A DNA stretch of 13,015 bases from an uncultured archaeon (GCA_964388035.1 CAYLZE010000068.1:1-13015); one strand, 5' to 3'; numbered from the stretch's first letter, positions 1 to 7,515 are shown. Notes: generated by a model not told the origin, from the letters alone. Made by a program: numbers and translations.

Positions 1-638
1 TAACTCTTTCCGAATTAAGTGTAATTGTCCAAGGGTTTGGAAATGTAGGTTCTGTAATTGCAGAAGAACTAAATAAAGAAGGATGTAAAGTCATTGCTGT
101 TTCAGATTCCACAGCAGGTCTTTATTCTGAAAAGGGTTTAGACGTACCAGAATTAGTAAAATGGAAGGAAGGTGGAAATTCTTTTAAGGATTATTCTAAA
201 GAAGGCATTCAAGTCATGGGCCAAAGGGAAATATTGACCATGAAATGCGATATTTTAGTTCCATCAGCCTTGGAAAATCAAATTACATTGCGAAATGCTA
301 GTCAAATTGATTGCAAAATTATTTTGGAAGGTGCTAATGGTCCAACAACTCCAGAGGCAGATGAAGTTTTAGAAAGGAAAGGTATAATTATCGTTCCAGA
401 TATTTTGGCTAATAGTGGAGGTGTTTTAGTTTCTTATTTCGAATTTGTTCAAGATATAAATGCCTATTTTTGGGATTTAGATAGAATTAATAGTGAATTG
501 AGGCAAGTGCTTGTAAAGACTTTCAATGATGTATACGAAGTAGCTAAAGAAAAAAGCATTTCCTTACGACTGGCAGCTTATGTCTTGGCGGTATCCACAG
601 TAGCTGAGGCAATAGAATTAAGAGGGTTTTATCCCTAA
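1..638 (+). CDS. gdhA: Glutamate dehydrogenase (Glu/Leu/Phe/Val dehydrogenase family), 5'-truncated by window edge
   Basis: The frame is open from nt 3 (TLSELSVIVQGFGNVGSVIA..., Rossmann GxGxxG) into the tracked ORF, which carries EGANGPTT and PDILANSGGVLVSYFE. Stop TAA at 636-638. Confidence 0.95.
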   Translation, partial: TLSELSVIVQGFGNVGSVIAEELNKEGCKVIAVSDSTAGLYSEKGLDVPELVKWKEGGNSFKDYSKEGIQVMGQREILTMKCDILVPSALENQITLRNASQIDCKIILEGANGPTTPEADEVLERKGIIIVPDILANSGGVLVSYFEFVQDINAYFWDLDRINSELRQVLVKTFNDVYEVAKEKSISLRLAAYVLAVSTVAEAIELRGFYP

Positions 639-2334: not shown

Positions 2335-3180
2335 TCACATGAGCAAAAATAAGCGCAAGAAGAATTCTGCCAGATTTAACTCATTTAAGATCTTGAAATT
2401 ACTGGCTATATAATCAAAAATATTTTCTTCCATGAAAAAAGAGATGCTATCTCTTGGACCGATATTTCCTTTAATAATATCTACGACAACTTTCATTATA
2501 GTGATGATCTGCTTCTCCACAACCATCATATCGCAATTATTAGGATTTATACTGATAATATTAAACCCAGTTGTTTGATTAAATGAAATCTTACTCAATT
2601 CGGGGTCGTTCTTGACGTATTGATGGTTTTTATAATTTGTAAACATGGTTCTCAGTTGCGTGAATATAGTTCCTTTTTGCTTTTCGGATACATGCCCATC
2701 AATCACGTTCATGAGGAGATTCAAGATCTGCTGGAACACGCCCAAGATATCAAAAAATTCGGCAATCGTGGTAACATCTTCCGCTTGTTTCCATTGGGTA
2801 TAATATTCTTCAATAGTTTTTTTAAACTCCCGATATCCCTCCACGTTTCCATTCCATTTATTGTGCCATTCCTTGGCATCCTTCACGTATTGATGTAGAA
2901 AAGACTGTTTTATAACATTTAATCTCGCTTTTAACATTGCAGAAGTAACGTCCTTGGTATCTGCAGCAATAAATAGTAATTTGGATTCTTTATCTTCCAG
3001 ATATACCCATCGAAGACCTGCCATTTCGATACTTTCTAATCCTTGCTTGAATTCAGCCACCGTAAATTGATTTAATGCCGCTAAAAGCCCAGATACCAGA
3101 TCTTCATCCACTGGAAAACCCATGAAGGACTGATATAAGAGGGTAATACCCGATTCTGAGTGCATGACCCAAATATTCAA
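2335..3180 (-). CDS. Protein with N-terminal longin-like domain (Asgard eukaryotic-signature type) and helical C-terminal region
   Basis: The N-terminal ~135 aa follow the beta-beta-alpha-beta-beta-beta-alpha pattern (NIWVMHSESGITLLYQSF; DEDLVSGLLAALNQF; LESIEM; WVYLE; LLFIAA; LKARLNVIKQSF). TTG start with SD-like AGGTG at 3186-3190. Confidence 0.75.
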   Translation of the reverse strand: MNIWVMHSESGITLLYQSFMGFPVDEDLVSGLLAALNQFTVAEFKQGLESIEMAGLRWVYLEDKESKLLFIAADTKDVTSAMLKARLNVIKQSFLHQYVKDAKEWHNKWNGNVEGYREFKKTIEEYYTQWKQAEDVTTIAEFFDILGVFQQILNLLMNVIDGHVSEKQKGTIFTQLRTMFTNYKNHQYVKNDPELSKISFNQTTGFNIISINPNNCDMMVVEKQIITIMKVVVDIIKGNIGPRDSISFFMEENIFDYIASNFKILNELNLAEFFLRLFLLM

Positions 3181-3616: not shown

Positions 3617-3633
3617 CTATAAAAGCTCTTTTA
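3617..3633. repeat. 17-bp direct repeat, copy 2 (3' end of SRPBCC-like gene)
   Basis: CTATAAAAGCTCTTTTA, identical to 3245-3261. Confidence 0.9.
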
Positions 3634-4099
3634 AATCGTGATCTTTACAAAATTTTTCTAAATTTCGTAATAAATCATTTAATTTTGTTCTCAAGATCAT
3701 TTCCGAGGCACTTTTCCCCACTGAATTAAGAAATCCACTGTTTAAATTAAAATTATGAACAAAAACTCCAATTTTAGTCTTCTTTTCCGATAATGATTTA
3801 ACCCTTATATTTCCCTCTAAATCTTTTACTTCCTTATTATTTCTGACATTGAATTCTATTAATCTTCCCTTTTCTTGGTCCTCTCCCTTATCCACCATGA
3901 CTAATTCCCCTTCCATTTCAATCGGGAAATTAACGACATTCACCTCATCAAGAATTTTGCTATGAAATACGTTAGGAGCAATAAACTCCACGTGGATTTC
4001 TTTCACGGGACTGAGTCGTTCCCACATTTTTTCTTTAAAAAGAGCCTGGAGGAATTCATTCTTGTTCAAATTATTTATTTCTAAGACTTTCGAAATCAT
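3617..4099 (-). CDS. SRPBCC/START-fold (CoxG-like) protein
   Basis: 160 aa: strand, short helices (EFLQALF..MWERLSP), a run of beta strands, then GFLNSVGKSASE and a long C-terminal amphipathic helix, as in helix-grip folds. SD-like AGGTA at 4109-4113. Confidence 0.6.
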   Translation of the reverse strand: MISKVLEINNLNKNEFLQALFKEKMWERLSPVKEIHVEFIAPNVFHSKILDEVNVVNFPIEMEGELVMVDKGEDQEKGRLIEFNVRNNKEVKDLEGNIRVKSLSEKKTKIGVFVHNFNLNSGFLNSVGKSASEMILRTKLNDLLRNLEKFCKDHDLKELL

Positions 4100-4330: not shown

Positions 4331-4543
4331 TTATACTTCTCGAATTAATTTGGTTCCCTCCAGGTCATTAAGATTCTTACATTTGGGGCATTCCCATTTG
4401 TTATCCGCGGTTTTCACGGTATTTATGCAATTGGAGCACACTGCTGTGTCGCAAATGCAATAATATAAGCTTTCTAAGGAATTTTCGAAATTTTTATGGC
4501 AGATATAGCAAGTTGGGGGCCTTCCTTTACTCTTTTTACTCAT
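4331..4543 (-). CDS. Stand-alone C4C4 RING-type zinc finger protein
   Basis: C-x2-C-x13-C-x-C-x4-C-x2-C-x12-C-x2-C, ending in CPKCK; 70 aa. Confidence 0.8.
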   Translation of the reverse strand: MSKKSKGRPPTCYICHKNFENSLESLYYCICDTAVCSNCINTVKTADNKWECPKCKNLNDLEGTKLIREV

Positions 4544-4622
4544 CTTTCGTACTTAAAGTTCTTAATTTAAAAAAGATAGATTACGTATTATTTAGTTTAA
4601 TATTATTTATAATTTTTCCAAC

Positions 4623-4636
4623 TTTTATATATATAA
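4623..4636 (+). promoter_or_regulatory. TATA box for the small membrane protein gene
   Basis: TTTTATATATATAA lies about 30-40 bp upstream of ATG 4666. Confidence 0.45.
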
Positions 4637-4665
4637 TGCAGATCAGCAAAAATGTCAGTAAAAAC

Positions 4666-4857
4666 ATGCGACTCTTATATCTCTTGACCATTTTTTTTAT
4701 TTATAGAATTGTTATAGCTTTAATTGAGGGAAGAACCACAGAAGGCATGGCATGGACCCTTTTTCTTCTGGTGTATCTGGTTTCTATCACGATTCTTTAT
4801 TTTGTCGTTAAAAGATGGGAAAAGGAAGGCACTCCGCAAGTATCTTCCCGAAATTAA
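4666..4857 (+). CDS. Small two-TM membrane protein (63 aa; alternative ATG at 4636)
   Basis: MRLLYLLTIFFIYRIVIALIEG...AWTLFLLVYLVSITILYFVVKRWEKE. The tracked start at 4513 overlaps the RING gene and promoter DNA, so a downstream start is preferred. Confidence 0.6.
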   Translation: MRLLYLLTIFFIYRIVIALIEGRTTEGMAWTLFLLVYLVSITILYFVVKRWEKEGTPQVSSRN

Positions 4858-4900: not shown

Positions 4901-6400
4901 TCATGATGCGGGATTTTTAGGGATCAAGAGGACGAAGTTGCTTCCTTTAGCAGAATCTTCATTAACTCTATTTTCCACCCATATTTTACCTTTATAAAAA
5001 TCAATTATTTTATACACTAAAGAAAGACCTAAGCCCATTCCCTTTTCACCTTTAAGTTTTTGATACCCCTTCAGAAATATTTTTTCTTTTAATTCATCAG
5101 AGATTCCAATTCCATTATCAATGAATTCCATTTTAATCAGATCTGAATTAAATTCGGAAATATTAATGATGACTTGGGGAATATCGGAATCATTATACTT
5201 GATAGCATTAGTTAAAATATTCTGAATAACATCAATTAAGAATTCATTTGCCCTAACTTCGATATTTTCTTTAAAAGAATGTACTTGAATATTTAGCTCT
5301 TTTCCTTGAAAACTTTGCCGAACAAATTGTATGGCTTGGTCTAAGTACTCTAAAAGATTTATTCTACTGAGTGCAATCATCTCGTTTTCTAAAGAAAATA
5401 ACTTTTTAATATTGGAAACCAATATTTTAGCTGCATTAATTTGATTTCTAATAATTTCATGTAGCTCATCAAGTTTCTCGAGGGAGAGTTCCTTTCCCTC
5501 TTTACGCAATTGGCCGTGAAGTTCAATAGAGAAAGATATATTCTGTATGATATTACTCATGTCATGAAGAAGCAAGTCCCTATAAAAATTAGCCCGATCG
5601 TGTGCTTCAAAATATCTTTCTTCAGATTTTTTTAAATCCTCTAGTAATTTTTGCCTGGGGGGCATTATTATATATCGAACATCAAACGGCTTTTTCATGT
5701 ATTGTTTAACATCTTCTCTGAAAAGTATGAGAAAAAGCAGTAGAAAGGGGGTATATCCTAGCCCCAGAATGAATTTTCCTAAAAAACCCCCCGTTATCGC
5801 GGATCCTAAGTCGGGTTCAAGAAGTTTCAGAACAAAGGGAAAAATAAATCCATCAAAACATAAGATGCCAATATACACCACCACATAAACGGGAATTAAA
5901 AGTGCGAAAATTAAGTTAAAATTCTCCACTATTTTAAAAATGGAAAACATGAGAATTAATTCTATCACATACGCCGATAAACTCATTAAATTTACGGAAA
6001 TAGTTGTCCTGAAAATCACGGGGGTAATTTGAAAGATATTTAAGATGCTCGAGTTATCTAATATGGAATAAAGGAGAAAATAGAGAAAAAACAAGAATAC
6101 ATTGAGCAAAACCCCGATTAAAATTGAGTTTCTTACGACGGCGGGATTGTTACTCAAAATAGCAACAATAAAAACCAAGAGGATCAAGGAGCAATAGGAA
6201 ATATTTCCTCCTGTAATAATAAGATTCTCAGAAAAAATTATGCTGTAAAAAATGGCATATAATTGAGTGAAAACAAACAAGAATCCAAAATACGTATAAA
6301 AAATCGCCATGGAGTTAAATTTCTGGATGTGCTTGGCGATTAAAAGTGGAGGAATTCCATAGATCAAAAGATGAGTGAAAAGGATTAAAAAGGGATACAT
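4901..6400 (-). CDS. Membrane sensor histidine kinase with VUT/YhhQ-like N-terminal membrane domain
   Basis: H box LLLHDMSN, N box NILTNAIKY, G1 DNGIGI, F box KIF, G2 GMGLGL. The first ~230 aa contain about 7 TM helices. Confidence 0.9.
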   Translation of the reverse strand: MYPFLILFTHLLIYGIPPLLIAKHIQKFNSMAIFYTYFGFLFVFTQLYAIFYSIIFSENLIITGGNISYCSLILLVFIVAILSNNPAVVRNSILIGVLLNVFLFFLYFLLYSILDNSSILNIFQITPVIFRTTISVNLMSLSAYVIELILMFSIFKIVENFNLIFALLIPVYVVVYIGILCFDGFIFPFVLKLLEPDLGSAITGGFLGKFILGLGYTPFLLLFLILFREDVKQYMKKPFDVRYIIMPPRQKLLEDLKKSEERYFEAHDRANFYRDLLLHDMSNIIQNISFSIELHGQLRKEGKELSLEKLDELHEIIRNQINAAKILVSNIKKLFSLENEMIALSRINLLEYLDQAIQFVRQSFQGKELNIQVHSFKENIEVRANEFLIDVIQNILTNAIKYNDSDIPQVIINISEFNSDLIKMEFIDNGIGISDELKEKIFLKGYQKLKGEKGMGLGLSLVYKIIDFYKGKIWVENRVNEDSAKGSNFVLLIPKNPAS

Positions 6401-6596
6401 GGGCTTTCCTTACCGAACTAATAATTTTTAATTACATGTCCTATTTCTGTATAATATGGTTATAAATTTTTATATGACCTATAAATGCACATAAAGGAAT
6501 TTATATTTATTTATCGATTCTAAAAAAGTCAGGAGTAATTCTTTAAAAGGACTTAAGGATTCTTAATCTCCCGCTTATATTGAGATAATAAAAAGC

Positions 6597-7515
6597 ATGT
6601 CATTATGGATTAGAAAAGCGATCTTTTATCAAAATTAATATCGAAATTAATCATGCGGCAGATGTAAAAAGAAATCAGGAACGCTATTCAACCCGCATGA
6701 AAGGGAAATGCATCGTTCTGTTATTCAGAAAAACATCTACACGCACGAGAGTATCCTTTCAGAATGGAATGTATCAATTAGGAGGAAATGCAATCTATTT
6801 GGATTGGCTAACGACGAATTTGCATTTAGGGGATCTTTCTGATGAAATCAAGTGCATGACGAGCTATGTAGATTTATTGATGGCAAGGGTTTATAAACAA
6901 GATACCTTGGAAATCATGAAAAACGCTTCAAGCGTGCCTGTTATTAATGGATTATCCGATTTATATCATCCTTGCCAAATATTAAGCGATTTATTGACCA
7001 TTAAGGAAAAAATGGGGCGGTTTGAGGGAGTACATTTAGCATATATTGGTGATGGAAACAATGTATGCAATTCCTTGATCATCGGATGTACCATGGCAGG
7101 AATTCATGTTTCCGTGGCAACTCCTAAAGAGTATAAACCCTCAAATGAAGCTTTGGAGTGGGTCCGAGCTCAAAATAAGATGAATCTTTTGACGTTATAT
7201 GAAGACCCCGTCGATGCAGTTAAAAATGCCGATTTTGTTTATACGGATACTTTTATCTCAATGGGGCAAGAACAAGAAACGGAGATTAGACTTAAAGTGT
7301 TTAAAGACTACCAAATTAATAAAGCATTATTGAGTCATACGAAAAAAGATCCTTATATCCTGCATTGTCTTCCGGACCATAGAGGTATTGAAATTACCAG
7401 CGAAGTCTTGGACTCCGAAAAGTCAATAGTATTTGAACAAGCCGAAAATAGATTGCATCTTCAAAAAGCTCTAATGTTGCACCTTTTGGGAAAGGGGTCA
7501 ATGGAAGAAGAATAA
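6597..7515 (+). CDS. argF: Ornithine carbamoyltransferase; 5' end appears frameshifted and shortened (intact frame 6697-7515)
   Basis: STRTR, HPCQ, GDGNNV, DTFISMG, HCLP and QAENR motifs. The OTC-like frame extends upstream of 6697 (GLEKRSFIKIN), but the plausible start, ATG 6597, is one base out of frame. Confidence 0.85.

Follow-up and report, generated by a model that had tools for sequence, protein, structure and literature searches.

The protein P0001 is probably an orphan membrane sensor kinase of an Asgard archaeon, in which the input is a VUPS domain of seven helices that branched off from the Vut_1/YhhQ transporters towards signalling, and in which a small molecule would set the autophosphorylation of His279. 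Its gene was found as one intact open frame on the minus strand of the window, by which we mean the whole stretch of 13,015 nucleotides analysed (G+C about 33%), and the window comes from contig C68 of a 5.47 Mb genome with a completeness of 96.7%. The nearest protein relatives are labelled "Promethearchaeota archaeon" (an Asgard archaeon) in the source records. The original prediction had described a histidine kinase with a VUT/YhhQ-like sensor from five strings, and all five were found in the translation: ITGGNISY (62-69), VRNSILIG (89-96), MSLSAYVIE (139-147), CFDGFIF (181-187) and GKFILGLGYTP (208-218). This observation was confirmed as real and beyond chance, because one part of the protein matches the Pfam family VUPS and residues 386-495 match HATPase_c. 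The features are collected in Table 1.

Table 1. Features of the VUPS-domain sensor histidine kinase gene and their positions in the window.
Feature	Residues	Position (nt)	Strand	Basis
Whole gene, VUPS-domain sensor histidine kinase (P0001)	499 aa	4901..6400	-	ORF list, translation, Pfam, orthologues
Membrane sensor module, seven predicted TM helices	1-228	5717..6400	-	AlphaFold model, hydropathy
Predicted TM helices	3-28, 32-51, 64-83, 86-115, 128-159, 165-194, 206-226; short hairpin 53-63			AlphaFold model
Pfam VUPS (PF20973) match	20-224	5729..6343	-	56.7 bits, E 3e-15
Juxtamembrane linker, basic, with Pro-Pro, least conserved	229-248	5657..5716	-	Model, 45% identity
Continuous helix: signalling helix and DHp helix 1	249-300	5501..5656	-	Full-length model
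Predicted phospho-acceptor His279-Asp280	279-280	5561-5566	-	Invariant in 29 sequences
DHp helix 2	307-339	5384..5482	-	Model; NCBIfam alignment
Catalytic ATP-binding domain	345-495	4916..5368	-	HATPase_c 67 bits

The VUPS family ("vitamin uptake-like sensor") was matched with 54-57 bits against a gathering cut-off of 27 bits, and the best score spans profile positions 5-206 of 206. When the membrane part was searched against Pfam with E up to 10, no family besides VUPS was reported; the same profile was matched by all 29 of the 29 orthologous sensor domains, with no other family recurring. Another sensor family without VUT similarity was thus not what the N-terminal domain turned out to be, since it matches VUPS and its model has a Vut_1-like fold. 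Pfam already lists this architecture under VUPS, a known ligand-orphan family of which the protein is an ordinary member: as in other VUPS proteins, the N-terminal multi-helix domain provides the input to a signalling output, here DHp and HATPase_c. In the literature we found no full-text description of the VUPS domain and no ligand, transport or phosphorylation data for any VUPS protein, and the domain is unmentioned in the archaeal two-component census, the HD-GYP domain survey and the Asgard kinase paper.

The sensor-only AlphaFold model was obtained with pLDDT 90 and pTM 0.88, and the full-length model with pLDDT 78, in which the ATP lid was of low confidence, as usual. From hydropathy and the K/R-rich segment after the last helix, the N-terminus is predicted to lie outside and the C-terminus with the kinase inside.

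The proposed derivation of the sensor from the VUT/YhhQ transporter lineage is supported by the VUPS match, the Vut_1-like model, the cross-matching profiles and a collinear hhalign alignment, yet the protein is a VUPS kinase and not a YhhQ transporter. In the ESM Atlas, the shape of the sensor model matched a bacterial VUPS-GGDEF-EAL protein (TM 0.85), a further VUPS protein (TM 0.78) and a Vut_1 "queuosine precursor transporter family" protein (TM 0.70 by query and 0.73 by target, 216 residues, rmsd 3.5 Å); in the two nearest VUPS clusters of the Atlas, 96-100% of the members carry VUPS. The profiles also match across the two families: with the Vut_1 profile (PF02592), only one of the 29 orthologues, that of genome G030 (47% identical), exceeds the Vut_1 cut-off (29.3 bits), and with the VUPS profile a genuine Vut_1 protein reaches 27.5 bits and so passes the VUPS cut-off. 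P0001 itself gave no match to the Vut_1 profile even at E up to 10. The hhalign comparison with Asgard Vut_1 proteins was collinear over 131-203 columns with P 0.0008-0.0015 (reversed control 0.63) and a probability of only 17-25%; the sequence link between the sensor and Vut_1 is weak.

Four of the five motif parallels originally drawn with YhhQ stood in the alignment (R-x2-I-x2-G, S-x2-AY, D-x2-IF and K-x7-TP), while G-N-x-x-[FY] matches no Vut_1 motif. Conserved or invariant Vut_1 positions are aligned by Arg90, by Asp183-x-x-[IL]-Phe and by Lys209-x7-Thr-Pro (Thr217-Pro218); Ser140-x-x-Ala-Tyr aligns with a conserved Vut_1 position, and Glu147 sits one alignment position off the Vut_1 Glu. 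The motifs D-x3-E-x2-G and LWxRN, which are invariant in 12 Asgard Vut_1 proteins, are lost, the corresponding kinase positions being hydrophobic or gapped. The sensor thus resembles Vut_1 (COG1738/YhhQ; TCDB VUT 2.A.88) in predicted fold, collinear alignment and shared positions, and differs from it in that Vut_1 proteins stand alone, measure about 220-260 aa and lack a signalling output, and in that the distribution of the kinase, unlike that of Vut_1, is unrelated to QueC. The C-terminus of YhhQ is cytoplasmic, and this fits a kinase fused at the C-terminus; COG1738/YhhQ is grouped with the VUT/ECF-type carriers in TCDB (PMC5372724).

Among solved structures, an all-against-all chain scan gave ECF S-components as 11 of the 16 best matches, with BioY (4dve), BtuM (8ovv), RibU (3p5n), ThiT (3rlb), PanT (4rfs) and FolT (5d0y) aligned over 147-171 residues at about residues 26-235 (helices 2-7); the Z-scores were 6.3-7.7, and according to the warning of the tool values below 8 fall in a range possibly generic for helical bundles, so they are not decisive alone. 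Foldseek against the PDB returned nothing significant (best E 0.59), with ECF S-components at TM about 0.3. The sequence identity to the S-components is only 6-12%, the sensor has an extra N-terminal helix and no ECF module is implicated; moreover, their function is transport, whereas that of the sensor is predicted to be signalling. These values make a common fold of the sensor and the ECF S-components likely but not proven.

A whole transporter fold ahead of a histidine kinase, by which binding or flux is passed to phosphorylation, occurs also in CbrA (with an SLC5-like domain) and in Amt-kinase fusions. These have bacterial hosts and unrelated transporter folds, some with experimental ligands, and to our knowledge none of their inputs is homologous to the VUPS sensor. 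For transporter-kinase fusions such as CbrA a transceptor role has been proposed, and the VUPS domain might likewise still carry its substrate across the membrane while the kinase reads the transport flux. The whole transporter-like fold is kept here (pLDDT 90, TM 0.70 to Vut_1), Arg90, Glu147, Asp183 and Lys209 persist as charged residues within the membrane, and this genome has no separate Vut_1 gene. However, the invariant Vut_1 signature has been lost by about half, and some genomes (for example G249 and G258) hold both a Vut_1 gene and the kinase; we consider continued transport unlikely.

Conservation was highest in the sensor. The mean pairwise identity within the clade is 64.5% for the sensor vs 55% for the kinase core, with 48% for DHp, 58% for the ATPase domain and 45% for the linker. 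Conserved in at least 85% of 134 diverse VUPS domains are Pro18, Leu114, Phe130 and Phe223 together with the family residues Tyr35, Tyr52, Gly65, Tyr69, Arg90, Asn121, Glu147, Asp183-Gly184, Phe187-Pro188 and Lys209, all of which are present here; the four charged residues Arg90, Glu147, Asp183 and Lys209 are kept in at least 90% of them. In addition, Gln46, Thr63, Asn66, Ser71, Asn91, Asn100 and Ser140 are invariant in the Asgard clade, and the S-x-x-AY motif is specific to the Asgard clade of the kinase as compared with the wider VUPS family.

Being the strongest-conserved part of the protein, the sensor therefore probably recognises something specific and is not a mere anchor. It is quite improbable that the membrane module binds no small molecule and works as an anchor or dimerisation module, as a sensor of membrane properties or as a receiver of signals from a partner protein. 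Many multi-helix kinase inputs do stay ligand-orphan, and the S-components of ECF transporters act by docking to a partner; but over 40 invariant positions, often polar and intramembrane, would not be maintained in a mere anchor, nor would such an anchor exceed the kinase core in conservation, and against the partner version no conserved neighbouring partner gene was seen.

The junction of sensor and kinase by a coiled coil was essentially right as first described: a short linker containing prolines is followed by an unbroken helix that holds His279. In the helix before His279, exactly 7 residues are missing in P0001 and its 2 closest orthologues compared with 26 other orthologues. An indel of one heptad preserves the coiled-coil register, as expected if this helix carries the signal.

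The kinase core has the features of the HisKA type, with a His in the DHp helix, the GHKL boxes and the helical hairpin 249-300/307-339 in the model and alignment. The boxes were assigned as N (N394/N398), G1 (D428-x-G430-x-G432), F (F442) and G2 (G454-x-G456-x-G458). Across 29 aligned full-length orthologues, little or no variation occurs at His279-Asp280 or in the N, G1, F and G2 boxes, and the kinase core therefore looks complete and functional, judged by its sequence. HATPase_c of Pfam covers residues 386-495, and the NCBIfam kinase models extend from about residue 272 to the C-terminal end. Pfam HisKA (PF00512) was unreported for P0001, yet it was matched in the orthologues P0014, P0034 and P0121. 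Dimerisation of histidine kinases is textbook knowledge.

About 37 full-length orthologues with 46-58% identity and 445-584 aa were found in Asgard metagenomes and genomes, all of the same VUPS and HATPase_c architecture. VUPS above the cut-off is contained in 26 of 301 Asgard genomes, always with one copy per genome, and a sensor-only word-indexed search returned the Asgard orthologues alone. When 1.84 billion representatives were searched exhaustively with the profile, only 182 proteins were obtained at E up to 0.001, and the domain is N-terminal in every whole gene among them. Ten sampled relatives had as outputs PAS/GAF kinases, hybrid kinases with receiver, or GGDEF-EAL, and one protein bears the name of an Odinarchaeota sensor kinase; an N-terminal domain with such varied outputs is typical of a portable input module. 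Unlike these, the protein studied here has a plain kinase output without PAS, GAF or REC and possesses the clade's own invariant residues. As stated in the original prediction, VUPS domains are described mainly in bacterial signalling proteins; this agrees with the VUPS clusters of the Atlas, which are 99-100% bacterial, whereas the host here is an Asgard archaeon.

Two other forms of the domain were noticed in the same order: a stand-alone VUPS-like membrane protein of 255 aa (L042:2890-3657, minus strand) in a single-contig 4.36-Mb genome, and, in a neighbouring family, a hybrid VUPS-kinase-receiver protein of 668 aa (L043:1926-3932, plus strand).

As first noted, the window contains no response regulator; we found no receiver domain in it. 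The whole genome gave 23 receiver (REC) matches, of which the nearest is a stand-alone REC of 138 aa about 10.6 kb off on the same contig. In seven orthologous loci no adjacent receiver and no conserved partner was found, the seven neighbourhoods all being different. With no adjacent receiver and no conserved neighbours, the kinase is an orphan; none of the receivers stands out as its partner, and its regulon is unreadable from the context. The 138-aa receiver (L041:3950-4366, minus strand; C68 16965-17381) has unrelated genes on both sides, one for DUF2961 and one for a methyltransferase, and is the only candidate for a two-component partner on this contig.

The neighbours in the window are a glutamate dehydrogenase fragment, a CitMHS transporter, three ORFs without family, an ornithine/aspartate carbamoyltransferase, an IorAB-like oxidoreductase pair, a Nitro_FeMo-Co domain protein and a UDP-sugar dehydrogenase. 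Indolepyruvate oxidoreductase genes were considered as partners of the kinase; they occur near it here and in one other locus in differing arrangements, and this was taken as coincidence. The ORFs without Pfam family are located at 2335-3180 (minus strand, 281 aa), 3617-4099 (minus strand, 160 aa) and 4513-4857 (plus strand, 114 aa), the last being hydrophobic and convergent with the kinase, and none of the three recurs beside the orthologues examined. In two related loci (L004:9554-10003 and L039:7577-8699), genes for a 3-methyladenine DNA glycosylase (Tag, Adenine_glyco) and a DUF3795 protein flank the VUPS kinase; this arrangement is absent from the window and is shared only by those two closely related loci.

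The carbamoyltransferase ORF (6592-7515, plus strand) showed an unusual start. Its first ATG at 6697 corresponds to position 37 of the Pfam N-terminal domain; when the frame was read back to the stop at 6589-6591, the match reached position 18 and the score was 121 vs 112 bits, and neither ATG nor GTG nor TTG occurs in the upstream extension. This points to damage at the 5′ end, a fault in the assembly or a non-canonical start.

For the VUPS kinase, we propose the following route of the signal. The input would consist of the six-helix ECF S-component fold with one extra N-terminal helix, and a small molecule would bind in a membrane-embedded pocket lined by the VUPS-conserved polar residues Tyr35, Tyr52, Tyr69, Arg90, Asn121, Glu147, Asp183 and Lys209, which, from the topology alone, may cluster in one place. 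The change upon binding would pass through the last membrane helix and the short linker to the long coiled-coil helix of conserved register, where it would control how the intact ATPase domain autophosphorylates His279. From His279 the phosphoryl group would pass to a receiver domain encoded elsewhere in the genome, which has about 23 of them.

As for the ligand, the original prediction had suggested a receptor for deazapurines, nucleobases or vitamins, and we found no support for any of these. The idea of deazapurines goes back to the homology to YhhQ only, and in the Asgard genomes the distribution of the kinase follows neither QueC nor Vut_1. In one Asgard family QueC was found in 0 of 21 genomes and Vut_1 in 19 of 21; another had QueC in 28 of 28 and Vut_1 in 0 of 28; and in a third, large family each was found in 3 of 76. 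Vut_1 thus behaves as a salvage gene across Asgard families, with a split at the family level between synthesis and salvage of 7-deazaguanine. The kinase was found both with and without QueC and Vut_1, with no association. Within the family of this genome, QueC is present in 5 of the 7 kinase carriers (this genome included) vs a baseline of 47 of 68, and in the family with rare QueC it is present in 0 of 10 kinase carriers vs 3 of 76 overall; the genomes compared are related and incomplete, so these counts represent an absence of support and not a disproof.

This genome contains TGT and homologues of QueD and QueC, the last within a fusion, and no Vut_1. De novo synthesis of preQ0 looks possible from the QueC and QueD homologues, and the organism therefore may not need salvage. 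The QueC domain forms the C-terminus of a 527-aa protein (G000:C22:28256-29836; L044:1757-3337, minus strand), of which the N-terminal 280 aa are an NAD(P)-binding NmrA/epimerase-like domain, and QueD is about 2.3 kb away. In many genomes of the same family QueC is found in frames of 520-570 aa, which looks like a reductase-QueC fusion typical of the lineage.

We consider it very improbable that the sensor binds 7-deazapurines (preQ0, preQ1, queuine) or related nucleobases as a receptor and reports the availability of archaeosine precursors. In favour of this reading are the homology to Vut_1, a family in which YhhQ of E. coli is required for the uptake of preQ0 (PMC5372724), the four Vut_1-conserved positions kept or nearly so, the use of the pathway by this genome with TGT and a QueC-containing protein, and the gene for a 3-methyladenine glycosylase, an enzyme that binds a free purine base, beside the kinase in two related loci. 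Against it, the kinase tracks neither synthesis nor salvage whereas Vut_1 shows the salvage pattern, the genome has QueC and QueD homologues without Vut_1, the two Vut_1 motifs D-x3-E-x2-G and LWxRN are lost, and no queuosine or archaeosine gene adjoins the kinase in eight loci; furthermore, according to Zallot et al. no residue is conserved throughout COG1738, and the family may also include carriers with different substrates, such as other purines (PMC5372724).

The VUPS kinase clearly illustrates how a transporter fold has been put to new use in sensing, here in the archaea most closely related to eukaryotes, and few membrane-embedded kinases were found in Asgard archaea in a published survey (PMC10343646). 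Because the architecture is catalogued and no particular ligand or regulon is indicated, the present value lies mainly in the correct annotation and in a defined set of residues. A broader and rather improbable reading is that the Asgard VUPS kinases are dedicated receptors for an extracellular metabolite that resembles a purine or a vitamin (preQ0 or queuine, for example) and that they might still transport; if true, this would be the first ligand-defined Asgard membrane receptor and the first ligand assigned across VUPS, and it would link micronutrient cross-feeding in syntrophic communities to two-component signalling. The ligand, once found, would annotate a whole Pfam family spanning bacteria and archaea.
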